This document shows positions 1 through 18,724 of a stretch of 64,000 nt of DNA, piece by piece; the stretch's first letter is position 1, and every line of letters starts with the position of its first letter. The DNA is from Phycisphaerales bacterium. GTDB taxonomy: Bacteria > Planctomycetota > Phycisphaerae > Phycisphaerales > UBA1924. The notes below the pieces were generated by a model, which saw only the letters and a program-made list of their open reading frames with translations, was not told the DNA's origin and did no database searches. The position numbers were made by a program, and so were the translations under genes. Location: NCBI GenBank assembly GCA_046350415.1, contig JAXMAL010000001.1, positions 1,476,782 to 1,540,781 of the forward strand, read 5' to 3'.

Positions 1-2256
1 GATGCCGATACCCCTCAATTCGGCGTCCTGCACATTCGGATCAATCTCCCGAACCCCAATGATTGTGAGCGGGCACCAACGATTCGAGCAAGAAAACAGC
101 AATGGTGCGCCCTGAGAAATGGGCGGGTCAGGTTCGTCGTCGTATCCTGTTCGAGTTCTCATACTCATCTGGGCCGTCTTGTTGGGGCTACTCTGGCTGT
201 TCGCGCCTGTGAGCACGCCCCATGACCCATCGAGCACCCAGAAGCGGATGCGCCGTACCTTTGTTCCTGTGCTCCATCCTTGGCCAGATGCGAGTTCATT
301 CCAATTATTCGCGTCGTCCGCTGACAGATGCACGCGGCAGATGAACTTGTTGGTCGTTCCCGGAACCGCTCGGCGCGTGCGGATGCGGAACACCTCGGAA
401 GTCATCGACGGCGGAGGCGGAAGCGTTCTGGTTGAACTGTTGGGGAGAGTATCCACCCATTTCCCGGCGGTGTTCTTGGTGAGCTTCACGATTCCGGGGT
501 TGGGTACATCGTCGTCTGGGGCTTGATCGCCGATGTCGAACCAACAGTCTTCGATCGCAAGGTTCTTTCCACCGGGGGCGACAATGATCGGCTTGAACAC
601 GGTCGTGTCCGTTGGAACCGAGATGTACTGAAGCCCGCCATGAGTGTCCAACTGCGAATACGAGTTGAAAAAGACCCGAGCATCGTACAAAACGGCCGTA
701 CCTTCCGATCGCCCCCACGTGCTGAACACCTGCATCCAGCGATCCGGGTGACTCTGGTCCGGGCAGTACAAGAGCCGTGTTATTGCCAAACGCTGCGGAG
801 GATCACCCCCATCGTCGTCGCTCGCGTTCGAGAGTACCGCCACCAGCGAGCCCGCACCACTTTCCGCTATTGATTGTGCCAGGCAGAACACGATCCCGCG
901 AAGGCGCGAAAAGCTCGCATCGTACACCGACCCAAAGCCGGTCGTGAAGCCGTGCAGATGCTCGATCCAAAGTTGGTCTGTGCCGTTCTGCACCTCGGTT
1001 GGCTCCGGCAGAACCATTCGCGTCAGGACCTCGGCCTGTTCATCCGTTCCCCAGATCAAGGTGCTTCGATAGAGAGAAATGGGCACGCTGTTGCTGAACG
1101 GTTGCGCGAGCCGCGGTCTCGGCCCGAGCGCGACGCCGACCGGCTGCTGAGAGCGAGAGCCGGGCAACGGATCGGGCGGGCCATATTGGCGGAAGCCGTG
1201 GTACCCGGCAGAGGTCCAGGACCAGTGCTGGGGATCGGAGTAGTCGTTCCCAAGACTGTCAAGGCGGTAGCAGATGAATCGGCTGTGATACTGAGCATCG
1301 CCAACCGATACGACCATCTGAATGCTGTTGCTACCGTACTCGGTGACTTGGCAGGAATGCGCGTGGCATCCGGTGGAAAAGGTCCCGTCTCCCTGCTCGA
1401 TGTCTGCGTAGAAGGGGTTACCGCTGACGGTATCCCATCCCCACGGGTCGTTTTCGGTAGTCCGCTTGAACTTCAAGACGAAGACTCGCCCTCCGAGTGT
1501 AAGCGGGACCGGGGGGTCATCTTCCGAAAACGCTTGGAATCGATAGTCAGTCGAAGATACCCAGCACGTCAGCGGATGCGCGTCGCCACGGGCATGAGCG
1601 AGAGAAGCGTGGAGGCACCATTCGCGTCCGCGATAGAAATTGGGTTGATTGTCTCCGACAGAGGCGTCGTTCCACAGGTGAGTCCAGACGGGAGTCGTAC
1701 CTGTGAGCTGGGCAAAGCCCCATCCAACAATCTCGTAGGTTTCCGTTGAGCCAACCTTTTTCACTAACATGCCGCCGAGCACGACGAGGCCATGAACAAC
1801 TACCGCAGAATTGGGAACCAGCGAGTAGTCGGAGGACAAGCCGCTCGGAGTGAAGCACGCCGCTTCGGTTGGATTGTTCCCTTCGACGTTTACGAGCGAG
1901 ACGGTTGTCAGGTCGGTCCGCTTGACCTCCGACAGCGTTGATCCAGAGAGTACAAAGAGCTTTCCGTGGTCTTCATCGCGGAAGACCATCAGTGGCGTGG
2001 TTCCGTCTGCCGCGACGCCAGCCGCGAGAAGCCGTGATTCGGGCGCAGCGCCTTGGCTGCCAATTGTGACCTCCGTCGGGGCCACGACCGGAGCAATATG
2101 CGTGGCCCGATCGAATCTCGGCTTGTTCGAGATCACCGAAGCGCCGCTTGGATCGACCGTCGCGACAGCACGGGAAAACGTCACACCGAGAGGTGTATCG
2201 ACCCGGTAGAAGTTGCCGGTGTAGCTGCCGTCGAATCTGAATTTCCACTGTGCCAT
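1..2256 (-). CDS. Large orphan beta-rich protein, C-terminus beyond the window edge (>751 aa)
   Basis: Not in the ORF track because it runs off the left edge. The minus frame with codon first bases divisible by 3 is open from 2514 to 1. ATG at 2256 is preceded by GGGGGAAG (RBS-like). Hand translation: MAQWKFRFDGSYTGNFYRVDTPLGVTFSR...FSEDDPPVPLTLGGRVFVLKFKRTTENDPWGWDTVSGNPFYADIEQGDG...NVQDAELRGIGI. It is rich in W/G/T/S and I recognise no motif. Confidence 0.65.
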   Translation of the reverse strand, partial: MAQWKFRFDGSYTGNFYRVDTPLGVTFSRAVATVDPSGASVISNKPRFDRATHIAPVVAPTEVTIGSQGAAPESRLLAAGVAADGTTPLMVFRDEDHGKLFVLSGSTLSEVKRTDLTTVSLVNVEGNNPTEAACFTPSGLSSDYSLVPNSAVVVHGLVVLGGMLVKKVGSTETYEIVGWGFAQLTGTTPVWTHLWNDASVGDNQPNFYRGREWCLHASLAHARGDAHPLTCWVSSTDYRFQAFSEDDPPVPLTLGGRVFVLKFKRTTENDPWGWDTVSGNPFYADIEQGDGTFSTGCHAHSCQVTEYGSNSIQMVVSVGDAQYHSRFICYRLDSLGNDYSDPQHWSWTSAGYHGFRQYGPPDPLPGSRSQQPVGVALGPRPRLAQPFSNSVPISLYRSTLIWGTDEQAEVLTRMVLPEPTEVQNGTDQLWIEHLHGFTTGFGSVYDASFSRLRGIVFCLAQSIAESGAGSLVAVLSNASDDDGGDPPQRLAITRLLYCPDQSHPDRWMQVFSTWGRSEGTAVLYDARVFFNSYSQLDTHGGLQYISVPTDTTVFKPIIVAPGGKNLAIEDCWFDIGDQAPDDDVPNPGIVKLTKNTAGKWVDTLPNSSTRTLPPPPSMTSEVFRIRTRRAVPGTTNKFICRVHLSADDANNWNELASGQGWSTGTKVRRIRFWVLDGSWGVLTGANSQSSPNKTAQMSMRTRTGYDDEPDPPISQGAPLLFSCSNRWCPLTIIGVREIDPNVQDAELRGIGI

Positions 2257-2750
2257 GACTTCCCCCAGCCCATGCTGATACCTTTGCGACGCTCCAGCGG
2301 CACGCTCCGATGGGGCGACCCCCTCCAAGTCTGCCACGGATTCTCGGGCTGGCCACCCAATCTCCCGGCATCCGTCCGATATTCGCTCGTGATCTTGTCG
2401 GTGCCCGATGGCGAGCGTCCCTGCGGCCGTGGAACCTCCCCGAACTAGGGGGTGTGGGCAAGAGCTGTACCGAGGTCCGGCGCTTCCGATCCCCGAATGT
2501 CGCGGTTTACACTCTCAGGGCGGCGTCGGTGAATCGACAGATGGGGCGGTCCAGCGTCGAAGCCAATCACTGCGAATGTTGCAGCGAAGGGACGACCATC
2601 AGCGCTGCCCTTGCCAGTCGCGATTCCAGCGGCCGTTGCCGAGCATCGCAGCGTCCAGACGGCGGCCTCAGATCAACAGTCTGTTGAGTTGTGCCGCTCC
2701 CTCCGCGTGATCGGGTCACATGATGGTCGCTGTCGATGGTGCGGGGGCAC

Positions 2751-5700
2751 TCAGGTATCGGAATGGAGCTTCTTGAGGGCACCGTCGATGGCGGTATCGC
2801 CCGCGGACACCAGCGCGTCTATTTGATCCAGACACCAATCTCGAACGCCATCATTGGCATTCCCTTGAGCACGTTCGTAAATTCTGAGAACGCAATCTGC
2901 GGCCTTGTCCGCAAAGTACGCTCGCACATGACTGAGATCGCGGTTCATCGTGGTCATGTCGGTCCGCGCGCGCAGGACGACGTGGGCCAGTGCAGGCTGA
3001 AATGGCGAAAGGTCACCCGCATAGTCCGCAAGCGGCCTCATCAGATCATTGGGGTCTCTCAGGAACTGCGAACTGCGAGCAAACTTCATGGCCAACTCGC
3101 CTCCGAGCGGAGAACGCATGACTTCCTCATCCCGGAACACCTCAGCGGCCGCGCCCGCGACGGTGGCATCTTCGTCATCGAAAAAGCGGGGAAGCCGCTC
3201 TGCAGCGCGAAGGCCGTCAGGAGTCGTCTCAACAAGACGTGCTAATGCCCTAGCTACGCCGCGCCTGCACGCGACGTTGCCGCGCGCGCAAGAGCCCGCG
3301 ACGACCTTCATGCGCGACTTCTTCAGTTCGATAACCGTCGAGAACACCGCGCCCTTCTCTTCCACCTTCTCAATCCCACAGGAGGTCATTCGCTCGATGA
3401 TGGACTCGACCCGAGCATCGCAGCGCCACCACAAATAGTTCAACAGGCGGTTGAGGTGGTACGAGTACAGCACGCGAGCATCCGAACCGCCACACGCGAT
3501 CTCCAGCAGACGAATGGCACGGTCCGGATCATCATTCAACAGGGGACCAACTAGTCCAATTGCCGCGACCCGGACCGACGGATGGGGATCGCGAACGGCA
3601 GCTTCTGCAACGGTCTCGAACTGCGTCCGCTTCTCAGGGCGGTGCCACATCAGCCGTTCAATCGCGTGAATCGCTACTCCACGCGCGCCATTGATCGACA
3701 AGCTAACCACATCATCCGCCGACATGTCGCCAATCGCGGTTTGCCCATCCCTGTTTTCCATTGACGGGTCTGGATGCGACACTGCGTGCTCGCAAATGCG
3801 AGCAATCGTGGTATCGCTCCACGCCTCCGTTGGCCTTGCCTGCACCAGCCATCCCAGCCTCTTGGAAAGGTCTTTCGACTCCCTTTCCACCAATCGGTTC
3901 AGGCACCTCTCAATGTCAACGGCTGTAGCGGCCTTCCAATCCGCGCCAGCGCTGTTTGCCTCAGGCTCGGTGGCGGATGCCGCTTCGAGAATAGCCTCAA
4001 ACCAGTCGTCCCGTGCCTCCGGTGGTAGGCTTCGGGCTAGTTGTACGGCGCGAGAAGGGTTCGCCCTTGCCACTTGCTTGAACGACATGTCCGACAGGCG
4101 CTCTGGAGTTTCAAATGATGTCTTGTCGGATGACTCCCATCGCTTACTTATTCGAGTCGCCCACTTGCGACCCGCCATCAACTCCCAGTCACGATCCGAT
4201 ACGAATGGCAGTCGTGTTGTGGGAATCAGAGATCGCATCGAGCGAAGACGTACTCGCGATGATGGCGGCTTCCATCGTTCAGGGCGGGACATCAACCATT
4301 CAGGCGGGCGCGGCGATCGCAGGCGCTGAAGATCGTCGCAGAACTTCGCATCCCACTGAGCGAGCCTCGCTTTTCCAGCCTCGCCGAGTTGTTCGAGCGG
4401 TATCGCGGACAGCAAGAGGTATTGGGGCAAGCCAGTGAGGTTGGGGACTAAGTGTGAGCGACTTTCGAGAACATCCTCCCGTCGCCGCTCCATGTGACGC
4501 CGCTCTGAGGGATCACAGAATGCGAGAATTGCCGCCGAGAGACGCTCCCGGCACTCGGGTGCTGCTTCCCACAAGTGGCGCACCGCGCTTCTGCCACGCC
4601 AAAAGCGCCGTACCACATCAGAATGCCCGTGCGCGCCGAGACGACGTACGTCCGAGAGCAGCCATTCAATCGCCACTTGCGGAATGGGTGCGAGAAGACT
4701 TCCGATGACCGACACACAAAGCCGAGTCGCCGTGCGGCTCCGAAGTCGCAAAAAGGGAACGGTGTGCGTCCAAAGCAACGGAGAGTGATCCGAGGCCAGC
4801 GCCGTCGCGGCCTCTTCGAGCATCGTGCGCAGCAAGCGATGAAATAGACGGCAGGGGTGATCCCAGCTCAATCTTTCTCTTGACCCTGCGGCACCGACAC
4901 GCCATTGTCTAGCACGGTATTTCAGACTCCGCAGGAGTATCGGTGCGAGCGTAACCCATGTCTCTCGTGGGACGGTGCCAGCAAGCTGCTTCAGCATAGC
5001 GCGATCAGAGTCCTTTCCGCTCGCCCATCTGTCGAACTTCTCGGGAATGCCCCGCTTCATCAGGCCCGGCCGATAGGCGTGCGCAAGCTCCCATCGCATG
5101 AGGTGTGCGGCGAATCGCAACGCCGCCAACGGCGCGGACTTCGCAGCGTGCCGAATGTCGTAGGTGTCACACGAAAGCAGTTCTCGGCGTTGAAGACGGA
5201 AACGCCATCGGGAGGATTCAGGGGTGTCATGCTCCGTTCCGTACGGAAGACATCGCGCCAAGAGTAATGGCTCGATCCGATGCTCTTGTGTGAGAGCAAA
5301 GAGCAACGCGAACACAGCTTCCGCATCGGTTTCGGCCAGTAGGCGGAGCGTTCCGGCCGCCCAAAGAGCGTCACTCTGGTGCTCCGACAAGAGCAACCGG
5401 CGGAGGTGCCCAGCTTTGAGCAACTCGCGCCACCAAGCGACGGTGGTCCAGCACCGCATCCTGATGCGACGAGTCCAAGATGGGATGTCGTGCAACTTCT
5501 CTGCTATCGCAATCTCGGACTCCAACAGAGGCGCACACTCCGCCAGCAGTCGAAGGACCAGATCGCGAATGTGCTCCCGAATGCCCGTGCTCAACAGCAA
5601 GTCGTGAACAGCCTTGGCGTAGGTGTGCGGGTCGTCGTCACGCAGGATCGCCAGCAACTGCCGCATCTGCTCGCGCCTTGCGAGGGACTGATCGGTCGAT

Positions 5701-7445
5701 GCGACCCACGCCGCAACCGTCGTCTGTGCTGATGCAACGAGCCGAAATACTGAGAGCGCGATCTGGTGATCGAGGAATCGTTGGTGCGCAACTCTGAATC
5801 GTTCGGGATCAAGTGCATCGAGATAGGACTCGGAGGTCAAAGCGTTTAGGGTACGACGATCCGGCTCAATGTTCGCGGAAAAGTCGAGCCTGCCGCGGGC
5901 TTCCACAACCTCACGCACCCGAGCAATCACCGCCTCGGCTGTTGCACTTGGAATTCCGTGACGTGACTCAAGCCGCGACTTGACACTGTTCCAGTGCGCA
6001 GACAACAGGCTTGAAGCACCCGCGACCTTGGTCAGGTCCGCTCCGCGTTCAACCAAGTCAGACCAAATCCACAGCATCAGTGGGTTGCACAGCAAGGCCA
6101 ATTGCTCAGCAGTCGGGAGCGGCACTCCCCATTCTTTGATGATGCCCTCAACCTGCGCTGATTCCAGCGGCTTCACCTCGATCTCGCGCAAGCGGCCCTG
6201 CGTGTCCTGATCCTTGCGCCAATTCCGCAGGTTCGGATCATCCTTGATGTCAAAGGTCCGGCATGCCACCACGACGGTCACATTCTGCGAATGGATCGCG
6301 TCGTCGAGAAGCTGAACTGTGACATCCCACGCTGAGGTCGAGTGAACGCCCGCCCACCTTACCGCATCAAGTTGGTCCACAACCACAACCGCGCGCTTCC
6401 CGCCAGCAAGCCGTGTCGCGCATCGGTCGGGAGTATCTGGAAGTTCAAGTGTCTCCCTTGAGTAGCGAAGCAGTCCCCCGCCGGATGGCAGGGCGTTGTC
6501 GAGGCGGAGAGGCACCACGCAGATACCAGATTTGATGAGTCGTTCCACGGTTTCGAAGAGCACCCCAGATTTCCCGCTTCCGGCACCGCCATGCACAAGA
6601 ACCACCTGAGGCCCGACCGATTCCATGACGGTCTTCAAGATCGTCTCGGTCTCCTTTCGCGGGATCAGCTTGTGACGAATCAGATGCCTCCCGAGTTGCG
6701 AGAGGAAGCGATCGCGGAGCTTGTGAACGGCCAAGACGTGATCCGGGAGTCTGCTCCAATCGCGGGGCTCGATCTTGAACCTGTCAGATCGCAGGTCTGA
6801 GAGCAGTTTGTCGCAGGTGACAAGTTGCCCGAGTCGGGATTCCAGAGCGTCGCGAATCGCAATGCGTACGGCGGCCCCTGAACCGTGGAACAGATCACTG
6901 CACCGCGTTTCCACATGTCGTTGGAGATAGTCTGGAGTCGTATGTTCTTGCACGAAGACCCGAGAGAGCCATTCAACGCACTTCGCATCCGCCTCGTCCG
7001 TTGTGCCCGCTCGCCAGTGCTCGCGAACGCGCTCGAATGCGGGGGATAACGACTGCGACAGCGACTCCATGAACGCAGTGGAGCTAGCCGCCGCCCTTGC
7101 TCGCTCGGTGAGATCGGCCAACTCACCTGCACTGCTCGCGAGCACGAGCCGGAAACGGCTGGAGGGGTACCGAGTCAATTGATCGCGGATTGCACCAAGT
7201 AGCCCTTCACTCGCGAGAGTCGCGATTGTCCACTTCTTGTCGCGGCTTCCTTTGCACTGGACGCACTCAATAGTCCCATCCGGCAATCGGCGGCGATACT
7301 CGATTCCATCGAAATCGCTCCCGACGCCTTCCCATTCAATCGTCGTCGCGTTTCCCTCGATCAGTTCGAGAGCGGCAGCGACGACGCAGTGCGCCTCGAA
7401 CCGATTCCCCATCTTGTCCGCGAACCCGCCCGTCGGCCATCCCAT
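2751..7445 (-). CDS. Cap4/DUF4297-like PD-(D/E)xK nuclease + STAND-type P-loop NTPase + helical (HEAT-like) repeat protein, 1564 aa; Avs-like candidate defence protein
   Basis: The N-terminus (aa 1-230) has the nuclease-fold pattern IEWEGVGSDFDGIEY...TIECVQCKG (D..E..QxK; nt 7251-7340). Walker A is GGAGSGKS (nt 6567-6590), Walker B is VVVVDQLD (nt 6366-6392), followed by VVVACRTFD (STAND/NACHT 'TSR'-like). The remaining ~1100 aa are L/R/A/E-rich helical sequence with a HEAT-type motif, DPHPSVRVAAIGLVGPLL. Confidence 0.85.
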   Translation of the reverse strand: MGWPTGGFADKMGNRFEAHCVVAAALELIEGNATTIEWEGVGSDFDGIEYRRRLPDGTIECVQCKGSRDKKWTIATLASEGLLGAIRDQLTRYPSSRFRLVLASSAGELADLTERARAAASSTAFMESLSQSLSPAFERVREHWRAGTTDEADAKCVEWLSRVFVQEHTTPDYLQRHVETRCSDLFHGSGAAVRIAIRDALESRLGQLVTCDKLLSDLRSDRFKIEPRDWSRLPDHVLAVHKLRDRFLSQLGRHLIRHKLIPRKETETILKTVMESVGPQVVLVHGGAGSGKSGVLFETVERLIKSGICVVPLRLDNALPSGGGLLRYSRETLELPDTPDRCATRLAGGKRAVVVVDQLDAVRWAGVHSTSAWDVTVQLLDDAIHSQNVTVVVACRTFDIKDDPNLRNWRKDQDTQGRLREIEVKPLESAQVEGIIKEWGVPLPTAEQLALLCNPLMLWIWSDLVERGADLTKVAGASSLLSAHWNSVKSRLESRHGIPSATAEAVIARVREVVEARGRLDFSANIEPDRRTLNALTSESYLDALDPERFRVAHQRFLDHQIALSVFRLVASAQTTVAAWVASTDQSLARREQMRQLLAILRDDDPHTYAKAVHDLLLSTGIREHIRDLVLRLLAECAPLLESEIAIAEKLHDIPSWTRRIRMRCWTTVAWWRELLKAGHLRRLLLSEHQSDALWAAGTLRLLAETDAEAVFALLFALTQEHRIEPLLLARCLPYGTEHDTPESSRWRFRLQRRELLSCDTYDIRHAAKSAPLAALRFAAHLMRWELAHAYRPGLMKRGIPEKFDRWASGKDSDRAMLKQLAGTVPRETWVTLAPILLRSLKYRARQWRVGAAGSRERLSWDHPCRLFHRLLRTMLEEAATALASDHSPLLWTHTVPFLRLRSRTATRLCVSVIGSLLAPIPQVAIEWLLSDVRRLGAHGHSDVVRRFWRGRSAVRHLWEAAPECRERLSAAILAFCDPSERRHMERRREDVLESRSHLVPNLTGLPQYLLLSAIPLEQLGEAGKARLAQWDAKFCDDLQRLRSPRPPEWLMSRPERWKPPSSRVRLRSMRSLIPTTRLPFVSDRDWELMAGRKWATRISKRWESSDKTSFETPERLSDMSFKQVARANPSRAVQLARSLPPEARDDWFEAILEAASATEPEANSAGADWKAATAVDIERCLNRLVERESKDLSKRLGWLVQARPTEAWSDTTIARICEHAVSHPDPSMENRDGQTAIGDMSADDVVSLSINGARGVAIHAIERLMWHRPEKRTQFETVAEAAVRDPHPSVRVAAIGLVGPLLNDDPDRAIRLLEIACGGSDARVLYSYHLNRLLNYLWWRCDARVESIIERMTSCGIEKVEEKGAVFSTVIELKKSRMKVVAGSCARGNVACRRGVARALARLVETTPDGLRAAERLPRFFDDEDATVAGAAAEVFRDEEVMRSPLGGELAMKFARSSQFLRDPNDLMRPLADYAGDLSPFQPALAHVVLRARTDMTTMNRDLSHVRAYFADKAADCVLRIYERAQGNANDGVRDWCLDQIDALVSAGDTAIDGALKKLHSDT

Positions 7446-7485
7446 GCCATATCGTACCGGAATCGAACAATCCGGGTGGGGTCAT

Positions 7486-7502
7486 TTCAACAGACTGTTG
7501 AA
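7486..7502. repeat. 17-bp perfect palindrome TTCAACAG-A-CTGTTGAA, candidate operator
   Basis: Read directly from the sequence. It lies about 41 nt upstream of the NTPase ATG (7445, minus) and about 39 nt upstream of the ATG at 7541 (plus), in a divergent AT-richer region. Confidence 0.4.
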
Positions 7503-7540
7503 TTGAGATTGAAACCGACGTGCTCGTCACCGCTTGCCAG

Positions 7541-7966
7541 ATGATCGCAGCGACGCCGCTCTTGGAGATGCGCGCAGTATGTGAGAGTTGCGGTTGCGCC
7601 TATGCCTCCATCGGCGCAGCGTTGTTTCTGTCCCGCCTGCGGCCACAATTCAGCAGCGAGCACTGTCGACGCGGCGCGTTCCGCCGTTAGTGCCACCATA
7701 ACAGCATCGATGAGATTGCGGGAACCGTCGCTGATGCAGGCGGCACGGACTTTGCTCGCGACGTGACCAGAACCCTGTGCGAGTCAACTCTGGAACGTCT
7801 TGTCGCGGCGTTTCAGAGATTCGCGGAGGCCGCATTTCATAAACTTCCTTGCGCTGCCACGATGAGCATCCGGCGCAGTGCCTTCCAGAGCATCGACGAG
7901 GGTGATGTCCTCTGGCGTGAGACTGTCGGAAAGGGTTACTCCGACTTGATGGCTGCCCCGAGATGA
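7541..7966 (+). pseudogene. Small plus-strand ORF interrupted by one in-frame TAG (7688-7690); possible gene remnant or unknown small protein
   Basis: The frame starting at ATG 7541 reads MIAATPLLEMRAVCESCGCAYAS...RR*CHHNSIDEIAGTVADAGGTDFARDVTRTLCESTLERLVAAFQRFAEAAFHKL...GYSDLMAAPR. The second half (track ORF 7763-7966) looks helical and protein-like. The first half is weak, and I recognise no domain. Confidence 0.25.
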
Positions 7967-7972
7967 ACGCTT

Positions 7973-9169
7973 TCACCCATACTTCAGCGCGAAGTCGTTC
8001 GCACGCCGAGTGTCCGTGTCGGTGTATGCCAACGTGGTCCGCAGCGACGAGTGATCCAGCAGCGTGCTGGCGAGATCAAGACTCTCAGTGCGTGTCGCAA
8101 AGTCGGCAAAGGTGTGACGCAGTTGGTGGGGGTGCCAGTGTTGAACGCCCGCCTTCACGCACGCGCGGGCGACGGCTTTTCGATAGGACTTCCGCGTGTA
8201 CATCGTTCCGGGAGCACGCTCGCGCTTCGCTGCGCCTTGCGCGGCCTTCATTGCTCTCAGCACCTGCGATGCCTGCACCGGAGTCCTGCGTGCGATACGC
8301 ATCGCTGAATGCCGCGCCGCTTCGCTCAGTGCCGGGGAGAACATGGGCTGTTCGGGATTGCGATCCATGAAGCCCATCAGGAGCAACTGCGCTTTCGGCC
8401 CGAAGCGAATCGTCCTTTCGCGATTGTGGTGTTTCGTCTTGTGGTGAAGAGGGCGATAGAGCCAGATGTCGCCGCTCTTGTCGATCTCAGACCACCGCAG
8501 CCTTCGGATTTCACCCGGTCGCGCGCCCGTCAGTATCTGGAGTTGGACCATGGCGCGGACATCGTGGGGGAGGTACGGAAGTGTCTTCTCGACAACCTCT
8601 GGCGCAACGGGCATGACGCGCTTCGTTTCTCGCCCGGCTTCCCCGACGCGAAGCGCGCGGACGCCGCACAGCCGGAGGTGAACCGATGGTTCAACGAGTT
8701 CCTCTCCAACACCCCATTTGAACACGGTTCGAATTCGACGAGTCGCCTCATTGATCCCGTTGCGGCTCCAATTCAATCGGTCCATCTCCGCGCGCAGTGC
8801 CTTCAACTGCGTTGGGCCGAACTGCTCGACCAAGGTATCGCCGTAGAGCCTTCGCAGTGCTTTCAGGGCGCGCTTGATCGGCTCCAGTGACTCCGGCTGG
8901 AGGGATCGTTTGGAGGCGAGCCAGTATCGCGCGATGAGTTCCTTGACGCTCAATTCCCGCCGTTCAGCCTCGCACAGCGGCAGCGAGCCGTCGTTGGCGA
9001 GGAACTCGGCGATCATCCGCTTGTATCGCTGGTTTCCGTCCTTGTCCCCCTCGGGGCCGAAGTAGAAGTCCCTGCCTTTGAAGCGGGCGCGGCGAAGACC
9101 GCTCCCCTTGTGGAGGCAGAGTTGCGGGAATTTCACAGTCTTGGGGCCAGCGGCGGCACGTCGGGGCAT
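7973..9169 (-). CDS. int: Tyrosine recombinase / phage-type integrase
   Basis: 398 aa. The catalytic signature is spread as TGARPGEIRRLRW (Arg), HQLRHTFA (HxxR) and LLDHSSLRTTLAYTDT (His..Tyr). GGAGA lies 7 nt upstream of the ATG. The gene sits directly 3' of the tRNA. Confidence 0.92.
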   Translation of the reverse strand: MPRRAAAGPKTVKFPQLCLHKGSGLRRARFKGRDFYFGPEGDKDGNQRYKRMIAEFLANDGSLPLCEAERRELSVKELIARYWLASKRSLQPESLEPIKRALKALRRLYGDTLVEQFGPTQLKALRAEMDRLNWSRNGINEATRRIRTVFKWGVGEELVEPSVHLRLCGVRALRVGEAGRETKRVMPVAPEVVEKTLPYLPHDVRAMVQLQILTGARPGEIRRLRWSEIDKSGDIWLYRPLHHKTKHHNRERTIRFGPKAQLLLMGFMDRNPEQPMFSPALSEAARHSAMRIARRTPVQASQVLRAMKAAQGAAKRERAPGTMYTRKSYRKAVARACVKAGVQHWHPHQLRHTFADFATRTESLDLASTLLDHSSLRTTLAYTDTDTRRANDFALKYG

Positions 9170-9185
9170 GGCGTGGTCTCCGGTG

Positions 9186-9213
9186 CCGAAAAGTGGTAAA
9201 TACCACTTTTCGG
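9186..9213. repeat. 28-bp perfect inverted repeat CCGAAAAGTGGTA-AA-TACCACTTTTCGG in the int leader
   Basis: 13-bp arms with a 2-nt centre, read directly. It lies 17-44 nt upstream of the int start codon, between int and the tRNA 3' end. Confidence 0.5.
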
Positions 9214-9284
9214 GGATTCCTGAGCCACTCTGCCCGACACAGGCAGGTACGCATAAGTGCTGCGTTCAGCGTGTTTTTCGTCAA

Positions 9285-9358
9285 TGGGCGCAACAGGACT
9301 CGAACCTGTGACCTCGGCTATGTGACAGCCGCGCTCTAGCCAACTGAGCTATGCGCCC
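9285..9358 (-). tRNA. tRNA-Val (anticodon CAC)
   Basis: The reverse complement GGGCGCATAGCTCAGTTGGCTAGAGCGCGGCTGTCACATAGCCGAGGTCACAGGTTCGAGTCCTGTTGCGCCCA folds as a cloverleaf. Acceptor: GGGCGCA/TGCGCCC. D stem: GCTC/GAGC. Anticodon stem: CGGCT/AGCCG with loop GTCACAT. T stem: ACAGG/CCTGT with loop TTCGAGT. CCA is not encoded. Confidence 0.9.
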
Positions 9359-13095: not shown

Positions 13096-13620
13096 ATGCG
13101 CCACATCACGCTCATCACCACCGGCGGAACGATCGAAAAGACCTACGACGAGGCCACCGGAAGCCTCGAAAACAAGCGATCCATCGTCCGGCGCATGCTC
13201 AAGCGTCTGCGCCTCGAAGACACCAGCATCAGCGTCATCGAGCTCATGAGCAAGGACAGCCTCGTCATGACCGACGACGACCGCGCCCGCATCATCGAGG
13301 CCGTCCGCGCCTGCGGCGGGGCGGTCAAGCCCGGCGTCACCTCGCCCATCCACGGCGTGGTTATCCTCCACGGCACGGACACCCTCTCGATCACCGGCGA
13401 TCGCATCGCCGCCGAGATCAGCACGCCGTCGGTCCCCGTCGTCCTCACCGGCGCGTTCCGCCCCTACGAGATGACGCGCTCCGACGCGCTCCAGAATCTG
13501 ACCGAGGCGATCTTCGCGACCGGCGTGCTCTCGCCCGGCGTGTACTGCGTCTCGCACGGCCGCGCCCTTCCCTTCCCCGGCGTGAAGAAGGACCGCGAGC
13601 GCTGGACGTTCGTGAAATAG
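13096..13620 (+). CDS. Short asparaginase-family protein (N-terminal domain only, 174 aa)
   Basis: Only the 3' third of track ORF 12214-13620 is credible. It starts at ATG 13096 and reads MRHITLITTGGTIEK...ILHGTDTL, carrying both asparaginase threonine motifs (TGGTI, HGTDT). Confidence 0.75.
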   Translation: MRHITLITTGGTIEKTYDEATGSLENKRSIVRRMLKRLRLEDTSISVIELMSKDSLVMTDDDRARIIEAVRACGGAVKPGVTSPIHGVVILHGTDTLSITGDRIAAEISTPSVPVVLTGAFRPYEMTRSDALQNLTEAIFATGVLSPGVYCVSHGRALPFPGVKKDRERWTFVK

Positions 13621-13715
13621 GCACCGGGCATCAGGTGTCGGGTATCCGAATCCACTGACCTTCCGCCCCGTGAGCACGCGGCGAGCGGCGCGGAGTCGGC
13701 GGCTTCGATTGCATA

Positions 13716-14321
13716 TCACATGCCCGCGGCGGCGCGGGCGGCCCCCATCGCGGCCGAAATGGCCGCGTCGTAGTTGGGTTCGGTGGCGACCTCGGGGACG
13801 ATTTGCTGATAGCGGATGATGCCGCAGGCGTCGATGACGGTGACGGCACGGGCGAGCAGGCCGTGCTCGCGGATGCGGAGGGCGTAGCGGTCGCCGACCT
13901 GGCGTTGCTTGCTGTCGGAGAGGGTGATGACGCGGTCGATGCCGGCGGCGGCGCACCAGCGTTTCTGGGCGAAGGGGAGGTCCATCGAGACGGTGAGCAC
14001 GACGAACTTGTCGCCGAGCGCGGAGGCACGCTCGTTGAAGGCGCGGGTCTCGGCGTCGCAGACGGGCGTGTCGAGCGAGGGGACGGTGGAGAGGATGACG
14101 ACCTTGCCGCGGAAATCGCTGAGGTGTTTTTCGGAGAGGTCGGTGGCGACGGCGGCGAAGTCGGGGGCGTCGTCGCCGACGGCGGGGGCGCGGGCCGCGC
14201 CCTCGAGCGTAACGGGCTTGCCTTTCATGGTGACCAGGGCTTCGCGCGCGTGGGGGCGCGGCGAGGTGGTGCAGGCGGGGAGGAGGGCGAGGAGGAGGGC
14301 GGCGGGGAGGAGGAGTTTCAT
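13716..14321 (-). CDS. tpx: Thiol peroxidase (atypical 2-Cys peroxiredoxin), lipoprotein-type signal
   Basis: APDFAAV...FRGKVVILSTVPSLDTPVCD...KRWCAA is the Tpx signature. The leader is MKLLLPAALLLALLPAC. The ATG at 14321 overlaps the upstream stop as ATGA; an alternative start is at 14360. Confidence 0.85.
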   Translation of the reverse strand: MKLLLPAALLLALLPACTTSPRPHAREALVTMKGKPVTLEGAARAPAVGDDAPDFAAVATDLSEKHLSDFRGKVVILSTVPSLDTPVCDAETRAFNERASALGDKFVVLTVSMDLPFAQKRWCAAAGIDRVITLSDSKQRQVGDRYALRIREHGLLARAVTVIDACGIIRYQQIVPEVATEPNYDAAISAAMGAARAAAGM

Positions 14322-15043
14322 GGGGGATTGTTGCACTCGTGGTGTGGAGGCGTCGGCCATTCGCGTTTCGGCGCCTGCTCAAATCTTGGCGAGCCGAGCG
14401 ACTGCATCCAGTCTCTCCACGTCCTGACGCTCATCGTTGAGAGATCGCCCAGTGACACCTTCATCTCTGGCATCCGAGCATGGATGTGGCGGATAAACTC
14501 GTTGTCGTTGCACGCGTTTGCACTGATGGTGAGTTCGTCTGGAAAATCGCTCCACCAGAGCAAAGCATGAACGGTTTGTCCGTTGAATGTGGCCGCGAAT
14601 TCTGCTGACCATTCGAATGTCGGGTACTCGTACGCCCGAAGGAACGTGGCACTAAACTCGCTGACAAGCCAGTCGCGAACAAGCAACCAATCGACGCGAC
14701 CCGATGAATTGGACGGTAGGTCGAACGAGGCTTCAAGCGTGCCGTCGGGAAGTTTGGCGAGATTTGGCGCGAGGTACCGGGGCTGCGCGTTCTGATCGGT
14801 CGGGGCCGGATTGGAATCGCTTTCGGTATTCGTGGGCCAACGAACACAGCCGGTCACAATGAGACTCACGCCAGCGAACATGAGGCCGAAGGCGAACAAC
14901 CAAAGTCCGAGGCCACTATTCCCCCACCGAAACTGCAAATACGCCAAGAATACGAGGACAACTCCGAGTATCGTGATTCCACTTCCAACAACGATTAGAC
15001 ATTGGGAGAAGAGTTTGCGGCAGGCTGTGCCTGATTCTGGCAC
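14318..15043 (-). CDS. Hypothetical membrane-anchored protein (2 TM + ~150-aa soluble domain), lower GC
   Basis: Two clear TM helices (LIVVGSGITILGVVLVFLAYL, LWLFAFGLMFAGVSLIVTG) are followed by a W/F/E-rich domain. It starts 12 nt after the thiC stop and overlaps the tpx start by 4 nt. Confidence 0.55.
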   Translation of the reverse strand: MPESGTACRKLFSQCLIVVGSGITILGVVLVFLAYLQFRWGNSGLGLWLFAFGLMFAGVSLIVTGCVRWPTNTESDSNPAPTDQNAQPRYLAPNLAKLPDGTLEASFDLPSNSSGRVDWLLVRDWLVSEFSATFLRAYEYPTFEWSAEFAATFNGQTVHALLWWSDFPDELTISANACNDNEFIRHIHARMPEMKVSLGDLSTMSVRTWRDWMQSLGSPRFEQAPKREWPTPPHHECNNPP

Positions 15044-15055
15044 GGGTCACCTTCC

Positions 15056-17158
<2,103 letters not shown>

Positions 17159-17160
17159 AC

Positions 17161-17247
17161 TCGCTTCCCTCCGCCGGTGCGAACCGGGTCAGGTTCAACG
17201 GGTGCATCTCAGCGTTCGGCCCCGTATGGCCGCCGCGCCCCGAGCGA
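17161..17247 (-). promoter_or_regulatory. TPP (THI-box) riboswitch in the thiC leader
   Basis: The minus-strand RNA reads UCGCUCGGGGCGC...GCUGAGAUGCACCCGUUGAACCUGACCCGGUUCGCACCGGCGGAGGGAAGCGA. It has the conserved CUGAGA, ACCC, GAACCUGA, CCGG..ACCGGCG and AGGGA elements and a P1 helix UCGCU/AGCGA. The 3' GGAGGGAAG doubles as the thiC Shine-Dalgarno. Confidence 0.82.
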
Positions 17248-17324
17248 ACGCGGGATGGTAGGGACGCTGAGGCGTGGCCTCGGCGGCGGGCGAGAAACGT
17301 GCGGCTTTCGTTGGTGAGGGGGCT

Positions 17325-18458
17325 TTACCAGACGAGGTTGGCGGTCGGGTTGGCGGCGGCGGCGGGGAGTGTGCCCGGGCCGCAGACCACGACTTCACCC
17401 AGCACGACGTTGGCGTTGGCGTTGATGTTGGCGGCGTTGCCGCGCAGGCGATTCCCGATGACTAGGTGCTTTCCGGAGGGGAGATCGATGGCGGTGCCGC
17501 TGCAGTCGTTGAAGTCGTTTCCTTGGATGCGCATGCTGCCGCTGGCGAACTGGCTGGATGCAATGCCCTTGGCGCATTGCGAGATCAGGCAGTTCTCGAC
17601 AGAACTGGCCCCATCGATGAAGACGCCGGCAGTGATGACGTTGCGGATGGAGCAGGCGCGGACGGCGGTGCCGGGGCCGGCATAGATACCCGCGTCGCTA
17701 TAAGAGGATGAGCCGGTCGTGGTGTAGACGGAGCAGTTCTCGACGAGCCCGCCGCTGATCTTGATGCCGGTGGAGGACTGGTTGCTGACGACGCAGCCTG
17801 TGACGACGGAATTGGAGCCGACGAAGATACCGGAATGGCCGCCGTCGATGATGCAGTCTTCGATGCGGGCGCTTCCGAGGAACTGGATGCCGGCCTCCCC
17901 GATGCCGGCGGTGACGCGGATGCGGCTGGCGATGCAGTCGAGGGACTGGAAGATCTCGAGCGAGCCGAGTTTGTTGGCATTGAAGGCGAGGTCCTCGAAG
18001 CGGCTGTCGCGGAAGTCGCCCGACAGGCCGTAGCCATTGAAACTGTTGATATTGCCGTTGCGGACGACGAGGGCGCGGCGCAGGCCGCCGGGAGAAGCAA
18101 TCCCGGTGGAGGGCGTGCTGCCGGTGCCGGTGATCGTGAATCCGTTGAGGTCGATGGTGACATTGTCGGCGGCGACGGCGATGGCGTTCTTGGAGGCGGC
18201 GGTGATGTTGCCCGTCAGGTAATACGACCCGGGTTGCGTGATCTTGTAGAGATTGAAGGTGTCGCCGGGCGTGGTCGTCGCGCTGATGGGGGTGCGGGGC
18301 TCGGGGCCTGGCGTGGGCGCGACCGGGCCGGAAGGAGGATCGAGCGGGCCGGCGGCGTTGGAGCTGGGCGCTTCGGTGAGTTGGGCAGCGAAGAAGGCCG
18401 AGACGAGCAGAAGGGCCAGAGCGTGGGGACGCGGGGTGTCAAAGGACGAGCGGTTCAT
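17325..18458 (-). CDS. Secreted right-handed parallel beta-helix repeat protein
   Basis: Signal peptide MNRSSFDTPRPHALALLLVSAFFAAQL. Repeated ~22-aa units with N/G/I/C patterns (VVRNGNINSF, IEDCIIDGGHSGIFV, VTGCVVSNQSSTGIKI, VENCSVY, VENCLISQC) are typical of pectate-lyase-fold proteins. Confidence 0.72.
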   Translation of the reverse strand: MNRSSFDTPRPHALALLLVSAFFAAQLTEAPSSNAAGPLDPPSGPVAPTPGPEPRTPISATTTPGDTFNLYKITQPGSYYLTGNITAASKNAIAVAADNVTIDLNGFTITGTGSTPSTGIASPGGLRRALVVRNGNINSFNGYGLSGDFRDSRFEDLAFNANKLGSLEIFQSLDCIASRIRVTAGIGEAGIQFLGSARIEDCIIDGGHSGIFVGSNSVVTGCVVSNQSSTGIKISGGLVENCSVYTTTGSSSYSDAGIYAGPGTAVRACSIRNVITAGVFIDGASSVENCLISQCAKGIASSQFASGSMRIQGNDFNDCSGTAIDLPSGKHLVIGNRLRGNAANINANANVVLGEVVVCGPGTLPAAAANPTANLVW

Positions 18459-18724
18459 GGGGCTTTTCACGGACAATCTCCTGGTGCGGGAACTCGTTTG
18501 AGTCGCGTTTGGATTGCGGACGCAGAGCGTGAGCGGCCGCATGGCAAGCTATGACCGAATGTCGCGGGCACGCCGTTTCATCCATCCGTGCGTTGTTTTT
18601 GTGTCGGGCGGCTTCTGGATCGCCGTGATTTGTGGTGCGCGTCGCGAAAAACCCGCGTACGCGTGGCGTTCATCGTGAATTGGCGGTTCCTTCTCGCGGG
18701 AATCGATCGAATCGGTCGGCGGGA

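Follow-up and report, generated by a model that had tools for sequence, protein, structure and literature searches.

The stretch of DNA considered here (the window; 64,000 nucleotides, C1:1476782-1540781) belongs to a Phycisphaerales bacterium (G000) known from wastewater as a metagenome-assembled genome (MAG), whose assembly of 4.47 Mb lies in five contigs, the 4.46-Mb contig C1 being the chromosome. Its closest integrase relatives point to Phycisphaeraceae or Phycisphaerales. Part of a genomic island, called island A, occupies the left end of the window and adjoins the tRNA-Val(CAC) gene. This report deals with island A, with a related island B that begins at a tRNA-Glu(TTC) gene on the other side of the chromosome, and with a 1.93-Mb inversion that probably left each island with the far end of the other. 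Four congeners, G001-G004, were compared with G000. Coordinates without a prefix are window positions; those prefixed C1 are positions on the chromosome.

The tRNA-Val site and its integrase

When ARAGORN was run on the window and on the whole genome, tRNA-Val(CAC) was found to be the lone tRNA of the former and the lone tRNA-Val(CAC) of the latter; its sequence is identical across congeners G001-G003. The features at this end of island A are given below, with attachment sites abbreviated as att, amino acids as aa and open reading frames as ORFs.

9285..9358, minus strand: tRNA-Val(CAC), attL of island A (ARAGORN)
9283..9326, minus strand: 44-bp segment of att identity, made up of the 42 nt at the 3' end of tRNA-Val, from the anticodon loop onward, and TT (blastn)
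9186..9213, no strand assigned: 28-bp palindrome in the IntVal leader, a candidate arm-type or regulatory site, containing GTGGTAAATACC at 9193-9204
7973..9169, minus strand: IntVal, a 398-aa tyrosine integrase reading away from tRNA-Val into island A (Pfam, PHROG)
7487..7976, minus strand: two small overlapping ORFs of 108 aa and 70 aa, between the integrase gene and the cargo (ORF calls)
2751..7445, minus strand: 1564-aa STAND-type NTPase (Pfam, PADLOC, homologues)
1..2337, minus strand: N-terminal 779 aa of a 1033-aa ORFan (whole gene C1 1476017-1479118), the first backbone gene

A first-pass annotation had read the right-hand part of this arrangement as a tRNA-Val(CAC) gene with a tyrosine integrase directed away from it, and ARAGORN, Pfam and PHROG confirm both identities. 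IntVal matches the Pfam family Phage_integrase (PF00589, 5.8e-19) and the integrase family PHROG_1 (5.9e-33). Its candidate active-site motifs, read by eye rather than from an alignment to a reference, are ARPGEIRRL, HQLRHT, LDHSS and AYT (R / HxxR / H / Y). A tyrosine recombinase with candidate catalytic motifs stands beside the tRNA 3' end, with 115 bp between that end and the integrase start. A similar spacing recurs in relatives of IntVal: those with 75-79% identity, found in four Phycisphaerales MAGs, all have tRNA-Val(CAC) about 117 bp upstream of them, and relatives at 31-39% identity adjoin other tRNAs. Empty tRNA-Val sites, which had been suggested as a check on the first-pass annotation, are present in G001 and G003. 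In both, the island is absent and tRNA-Val runs straight into the flank that in G000 follows a distant attR-Val, described below.

Extent and composition of island A

All large ORFs to the left of IntVal (7650-7976, 7487-7699, 2751-7445 and 1-2337) lie on the minus strand, as had been noted from the sequence by eye. The lower G+C and weaker third-position bias that had been estimated in the same way were borne out by computation. G+C is 0.58-0.62 over 1-9000 against 0.65-0.70 over nearly all of the remaining window, and G+C at third codon positions (GC3) is 0.66-0.74 in island ORFs, where core genes with good support reach 0.86-0.90. When 5-kb windows of the island were ranked against 5-kb windows of the genome, they fell in the 0.8-4th percentiles for G+C and the 92nd-99th percentiles for tetranucleotide distance, a composition that deviates from that of the host core.

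The window edge does cut through a tRNA-Val-targeted island, and the further cargo that had been supposed to lie beyond position 1 exists. Low G+C continues for 8.3 kb to the left of position 1, to about C1 1468500, and the island as a whole is 17.6 kb long, C1 1468453-1486065. Its backbone ORFs to the left of the window encode proteins of 417 aa (DUF7453/NxxGxxAF), 224, 900, 91, 281 and 430 aa, and extend up to a 15-bp repeat of a tRNA-Glu gene at the island's left edge.

Mismatched attachment sites and flanks

The distal att site of island A had been expected to be a second copy of the tRNA-Val 3' end lying beyond position 1, and this expectation failed. The search for repeats used exact matches of 11-mers as well as blastn-short with a word size of 7 over the 40-60 kb to the left, and blastn across the whole genome. 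No tRNA-Val 3' repeat of at least 11 bp was found in 1-9284, where inspection by eye had likewise seen none, or up to 60 kb to the left, and the distal border of the island has no direct tRNA-Val 3' repeat. The sole other copy of the 44-bp segment lies 1.935 Mb away at C1 3421160-3421203, on the plus strand and thus inverted, with 44/44 identity. ARAGORN finds no full tRNA there; this copy, attR-Val, is the end of island B.

The left edge of island A carries CCCATCGGGGTCATT, which consists of the terminal 12 nt of tRNA-Glu and 3 further nt, at C1 1468453-1468467 and in the same orientation as tRNA-Val. The 15-mer is by itself not significant genome-wide; it falls exactly on the boundary of the island in both composition and homology. 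The DNA just outside it aligns with the sequence directly after tRNA-Glu in G003 and G004, where a gene for a PPC-domain protein and tRNA-Ala(GGC) adjoin tRNA-Glu and the sites are empty. At the other end of the pair, the approximately 180 bp after attR-Val align with the sequence that follows tRNA-Val in the empty sites of G001 and G003, and also with the sequence after the 26-bp distal repeat of a different island found in the tRNA-Val of G002. It follows from the edge position and the flank alignments that island A reads attL-Val...attR-Glu and is succeeded by tRNA-Glu flank, and that island B reads attL-Glu...attR-Val and is succeeded by tRNA-Val flank.

These ends bear directly on the simplest account of the locus, an ordinary tRNA-Val island with its direct tRNA-Val repeat and the rest of its cargo just beyond position 1. 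The combination of tRNA, integrase and low G+C is what such an island would present, and island A does reach 8.3 kb past position 1. With no tRNA-Val repeat over 60 kb, however, and with a boundary at C1 1468453 where a repeat of tRNA-Glu is accompanied by the downstream flank of that gene, this account is hardly tenable.

Sequence motifs near the att sites link the separated ends in the same crosswise fashion. The 4.46-Mb chromosome has exactly two copies of the motif GGTA[AT][AT]TACC, one in the palindrome of the IntVal leader (9193-9206, C1 1485976) and one at C1 3421023, 137 bp upstream of the attR-Val core; GTGGTAAATACC thereby joins the proximal end of A with the distal end of B. Of TGCGTCGCNTTTTGCGTC, too, there are exactly two copies in the chromosome, one in B at 114 bp downstream of tRNA-Glu and one in A at 53 bp inside the 15-bp repeat, and this motif joins the proximal end of B with the distal end of A. 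The two ends of the tRNA-Val module are found together in L032, from another Phycisphaerales MAG, where an intact element of 3.5 kb consists of tRNA-Val, the integrase gene, a gene for a DUF1580 protein and a 44-bp attR that begins at the same base as in G000. Its proximal 1.39 kb matches the near end of island A (80%) and its distal 0.8 kb the far end of island B (71%). Both of its arm motifs are GTGGTAGATACC in place of GTGGTAAATACC; as both copies have changed alike, the two arms covary.

Island B and its relation to island A

Island B is a 22-kb block immediately to the left of the distant 44-bp copy, with a G+C of 57-65%, mostly about 60%. Its main features, together with two segments of island A that B lacks, are listed here.

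C1 3399017-3399091: tRNA-Glu(TTC), start of island B (ARAGORN)
Beside tRNA-Glu, 3' end overlapping the tRNA: IntGlu, a second tyrosine integrase of 427 aa (Pfam PF00589, 8e-11)
C1 3420312-3420671 (L003 12312-12671): 119-aa DUF1580 protein, beside attR-Val
C1 1474634-1474708: A-specific 74-bp junction
C1 1472139-1472418: A-specific 279-bp segment

IntGlu differs from IntVal, so that each island has its own integrase, IntVal in A and IntGlu in B, and each is bounded by att sites of both. The two islands are collinear in the direction from tRNA to distal end and have about 11 kb in common at 76-100% identity (blastn). The block of homology starts near the 108-aa and 70-aa ORFs of A, 7079-7500 corresponding to C1 3402115-3402535 at 96%. 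It includes the 1033/1027-aa ORFan (92.5% identical in the B copy), the 417/416-aa DUF7453 protein, and ORFs of 224, 900, 281 and 430 aa, of which the 900-aa ORF is broken in B by a 279-bp deletion. By tblastn, B retains only the first 112 codons of the 1564-aa gene. In turn it has a 5.3-kb insert that is not in A, with a gene for a 278-aa protein bearing nucleotide-modification-associated domain 3 (Nmad3; C1 3411867-3412703, L003 3867-4703) and a 461-aa ORFan upstream of it. The tRNA-Val elements in L029 and L032 encode homologues, at 73% identity, of the DUF1580 protein beside attR-Val; the protein is a candidate for a role in excision or regulation of the tRNA-Val module.

Integrases related to IntGlu are not confined to island B. 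The tRNA-Val of G002 holds a different island of about 10 kb (L004 2802-13108; G002:C9:311802-322108), the one with the 26-bp distal repeat, and its integrase is of the IntGlu type (42% identity), with a 3' end that overlaps the tRNA. With IntVal at this site in G000 and an IntGlu-type enzyme in G002, two unrelated integrase lineages therefore target tRNA-Val within one genus. Two further IntGlu-type paralogues are encoded in G000 itself, at C1 1630642-1631319 and C1 1604282-1605373 (42% and 24% identity), the former overlapping the 3' end of tRNA-Lys(CTT) and the latter that of tRNA-Asp(GTC). Both are probable markers of additional islands, 120-145 kb to the right of the window start.

Identity between A and B is a mosaic: some tracts reach 99-100% and include exact runs of 1413, 914 and 457 bp, and in the tracts between them it is 76-96%. 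Such a pattern raises the question of whether the assembly is right. If two ordinary islands had been present and the assembler had switched copies within a near-identical tract, a false inversion of 1.93 Mb would be the result; the genome is a MAG, the exact runs offer places for a switch, and public short-read contigs, which break at every repeat boundary, leave the linkage unconfirmed. A contig of 4.46 Mb, however, implies long reads, for which tracts of 1.4-2.3 kb are usually short enough to be bridged; between the exact runs the two copies diverge by 4-24%, and inverted repeats commonly do give rise to real origin-symmetric inversions. An artefact of this kind is therefore improbable. The short-read material consulted, Logan contigs from four metagenomes, reproduces the D_glu/att15/island-A junction and the junction of attR-Val with its flank (through C1 3422664) with 0 mismatches, and its depth is about twofold over the parts that A and B share.

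A probable inversion between the two islands

The best DnaA match in the genome is at C1 2429931-2430410, placing dnaA at 2.430 Mb. The centre of island A is at 1.477 Mb and that of island B at 3.410 Mb; the midpoint between them, 2.444 Mb, lies 14 kb from dnaA, so that the two are symmetric about it to within about 1%. The endpoints of the segment between them are thus equidistant from the origin, and replichores remain balanced. At the breakpoints lie inverted homologous repeats between which att sites and flanks have been exchanged reciprocally, as checked against the congeners.

The arrangement is probably the outcome of homologous recombination between two inverted, related islands, which would have produced an origin-symmetric inversion of 1.93 Mb with mismatched att sites. 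In this scheme, the ancestor of island A would have entered the 3' 44 bp of tRNA-Val(CAC) by means of its own tyrosine integrase, and a related island, the ancestor of B, would have inserted at tRNA-Glu(TTC) on the opposite replichore, inverted relative to the first and with a different integrase and a 15-bp core. One RecA-type crossover within the inverted backbones of about 11 kb would then have inverted 1.93 Mb with dnaA at its centre and swapped the distal halves, giving A a tRNA-Glu-type attR with the old tRNA-Glu flank and B a tRNA-Val-type attR with the old tRNA-Val flank. A single crossover of this kind yields exactly the hybrid att pairs that are observed. The near-identical tracts would be the expected trace of gene conversion between two copies residing in one cell.

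One consequence concerns mobility. As the attL and attR of each integrase are now inverted and 1.93 Mb apart, neither island excises as a unit; an integrase-catalysed reaction between attL and attR would be expected to flip the segment back and leave the island in place. The sequence itself shows the anatomy of the islands, the pairing of their att sites, the identities of the flanks and the symmetry about the origin; we infer that both integrases are still active, and that the inversion was made by homologous rather than site-specific recombination.

The latter point has to be weighed against a bipartite element. Here a cointegrate carrying both integrases and both attP sites would have entered tRNA-Val, and IntGlu would have recombined attP-Glu with the inverted attB of tRNA-Glu, splitting A from B reversibly. 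Islands A and B would accordingly be the resting parts of a non-conjugative bipartite element of about 39 kb, in which IntVal or IntGlu flips the 1.93-Mb segment to reassemble the element at one tRNA before excision. Mismatched att pairs on two separated parts, with one integrase each and head-to-head on opposite replichores that stay balanced, are what such an element should show; the geometry is exactly that described for bipartite symbiosis integrative and conjugative elements (symICEs) at tRNA-Val (PMC9174649), neither integrase ORF is disrupted, and the arm motifs have been retained. On the other hand, the composite would hold two direct copies of the 11-kb backbone and be unstable, and the mosaic of near-identical tracts shows homologous exchange between the copies. 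The known intact relative of the tRNA-Val module, in L032, is monopartite, simple and only 3.5 kb long, no conjugation genes were found among the ORFs of A or B, and more steps are needed than for a single crossover between two ordinary islands. An IntGlu-made split of a cointegrate is for these reasons unlikely, and it is doubtful that A and B are parts of one element at rest. Were they so, the pair would be a counterpart, on a miniature scale, of the polypartite symbiosis elements and an integrase-controlled switch of chromosome orientation in Planctomycetota.

Several observations weigh against an inversion by homologous recombination, or limit how closely it can be traced. No read or contig spans either island end to end: the short-read contigs, built on a graph of 31-mers that are shorter than the 44-bp core, break at the repeats and at that core. 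The exact tracts of 914 and 1413 bp exceed the short-read length, so that the linkage of the ends derives solely from the MAG assembly. Inversion of a cointegrate by site-specific recombination between attP-Glu and attB-Glu gives an identical end product, and the mosaic of identities prevents the crossover point from being located. Additional breakpoints lie about 200-280 bp to the right of attR-Val and at about 13.6 kb in the window. Synteny with the congeners is short-range (blocks of 2-60 kb between G000 and G002), and the history may have had more steps. GC skew was dropped as support for replichore balance, its minimum being flat from 2.2 to 2.75 Mb, and the position of dnaA was used in its place.

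Comparison with known systems

It is well documented that repeats formed by prophages or islands can bound origin-symmetric inversions (PMC8743559; PMC11602124). Those of E. coli O157:H7 (PMC8743559) and Streptococcus pyogenes (PMC11602124) resemble the present case in that inverted copies of mobile elements lie on opposite replichores, symmetric about the replication axis, and leave hybrid elements at both breakpoints. The case described here differs from them in involving small non-phage islands in a MAG of the Planctomycetota, and in being deduced from one assembly and its congeners rather than from isogenic strains. An inversion of this sort between related islands is a known phenomenon, met here with internal evidence of unusual completeness in a phylum that has received little study.

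Tyrosine integrases of P4 and other types direct islands to tRNA genes, and island A has much in common with these: the integrase at the tRNA 3' end, a tRNA whose 3' part is restored by a 44-bp copy carried on the element, atypical composition, empty sites in relatives and defence-like cargo. The difference is that the matching repeat is 1.93 Mb away and inverted, and that the far end holds the att site of another element.

The polypartite symbiosis elements of Mesorhizobium and Bradyrhizobium are bi- or tripartite (Haskett et al., 2016, as cited in PMC9174649). Their parts are bounded by att sites of different integrases, with tRNA-Val among the targets, the att sites lie head-to-head across the origin, and inversion is the step that joins or splits the parts. 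They measure 0.05-0.8 Mb, are conjugative, have no common backbone, and undergo inversions whose dependence on the integrases was shown experimentally. Here, in contrast, the parts are of 17.6 and 22 kb, no conjugation genes were found, and 11 kb of shared homology could by itself account for the inversion.

An inversion accounts for the fact that the distal att site of island A could not be seen from its surroundings; island finders that look for flanking direct repeats would miss such cases or delimit them wrongly. The two islands furnish a clean example of how a pair of mobile elements can reshape nearly half of a chromosome, keep its replichores balanced and lock themselves in place. The results also document, for the little-explored Phycisphaerae, a family of small tRNA-Val elements in which the 44-bp core is defined and the arm motifs covary. 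Should the wastewater population contain both orientations side by side, the island pair would be a large-scale genome switch.

Cargo and class of the islands

The ORFs of both islands were scanned variously with Pfam, PHROG, NCBIfam and PADLOC. The largest cargo protein, the 1564-aa STAND-type NTPase, matches Pfam nSTAND_NTPase5 (1.6e-4, below the cut-off) and PADLOC PDC-M54A (5e-9). It has 89 homologues of about 1500 aa, annotated as nSTAND1/5, NB-ARC, AAA_16 or HEAT, in what is a widespread family; a sequence search of the PDB returned nothing. Its sequence relationships make the gene a candidate for a role in defence. Neither of the two small ORFs, of 108 aa and 70 aa, had a match in Pfam or PHROG.

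Among the backbone ORFs, including the 1033-aa ORFan, only the 417-aa ORF had a match in Pfam, PHROG, NCBIfam or PADLOC. The 1033-aa protein is rare. Apart from the two copies in G000 there is one homologue at 58% in G001, the only one of the four congeners searched to have any, and homologues at 29-31% in 3 of 300 genomes of the order. The G001 homologue lies on C23, a contig of 20 kb with neither tRNA nor integrase, and is uninformative on att sites. The 417-aa DUF7453/NxxGxxAF protein (C1 1474767-1476020; L001 14767-16020) has at least three paralogues (53-76%) outside the islands, at C1 1377170-1378330, 1578499-1579602 and 3653699-3654652.

Two other classes of element were considered and rejected. 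A prophage would not fit, as the integrase is the sole PHROG match, the Pfam matches include no capsid, tail, terminase or lysis genes, and the backbone protein was absent from IMG/VR. An integrative and conjugative or integrative and mobilizable element was rejected because no ORF of A or B gave a relaxase, coupling-protein or type IV secretion match in Pfam or NCBIfam.

Other observations in the surrounding chromosome

The neighbourhood of tRNA-Val is rearrangement-prone. The block to the right of attR-Val was at first sight a candidate for tRNA-Val downstream flank throughout, a reading that was rejected, since only its first approximately 180 bp are of this origin and an unrelated breakpoint follows. 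The adjacent stretch C1 3421481-3425500 is found in all four congeners upstream of tRNA-Val, adjoining the far end of a 4.3-kb upstream block. Within the window, synteny with all four congeners stops at 13613-13686 (C1 about 1490400-1490470), a breakpoint that is independent of the island repeats, and 13636-18600 is found on other contigs in the congeners. GC skew is +0.15 to +0.22 from 14001 to about 25000 and then tapers, in a region whose average is negative, and G+C at 14001-15000 is 0.613; the segment 14001-35000 may have been recently inverted or relocated, or may have a strong gene-strand bias.

A second DnaA-domain match (155 bits, in an open frame of 627 aa) is located at C1 3731465-3731926, far from the dnaA at 2.430 Mb. 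Lastly, two of the short-read runs, X1 and X4, yielded contigs beginning at L001 12767 that carry nine B-type letters at L001 14441-14507 (C1 1474441-1474507). The X1 contig continues through the A-specific 74-bp junction in A-type form, which is seen in X1 only, and the X4 contig skips the junction and resembles the B copy. This difference reflects either population variation in the extent of gene conversion between A and B or a chimeric k-mer contig.

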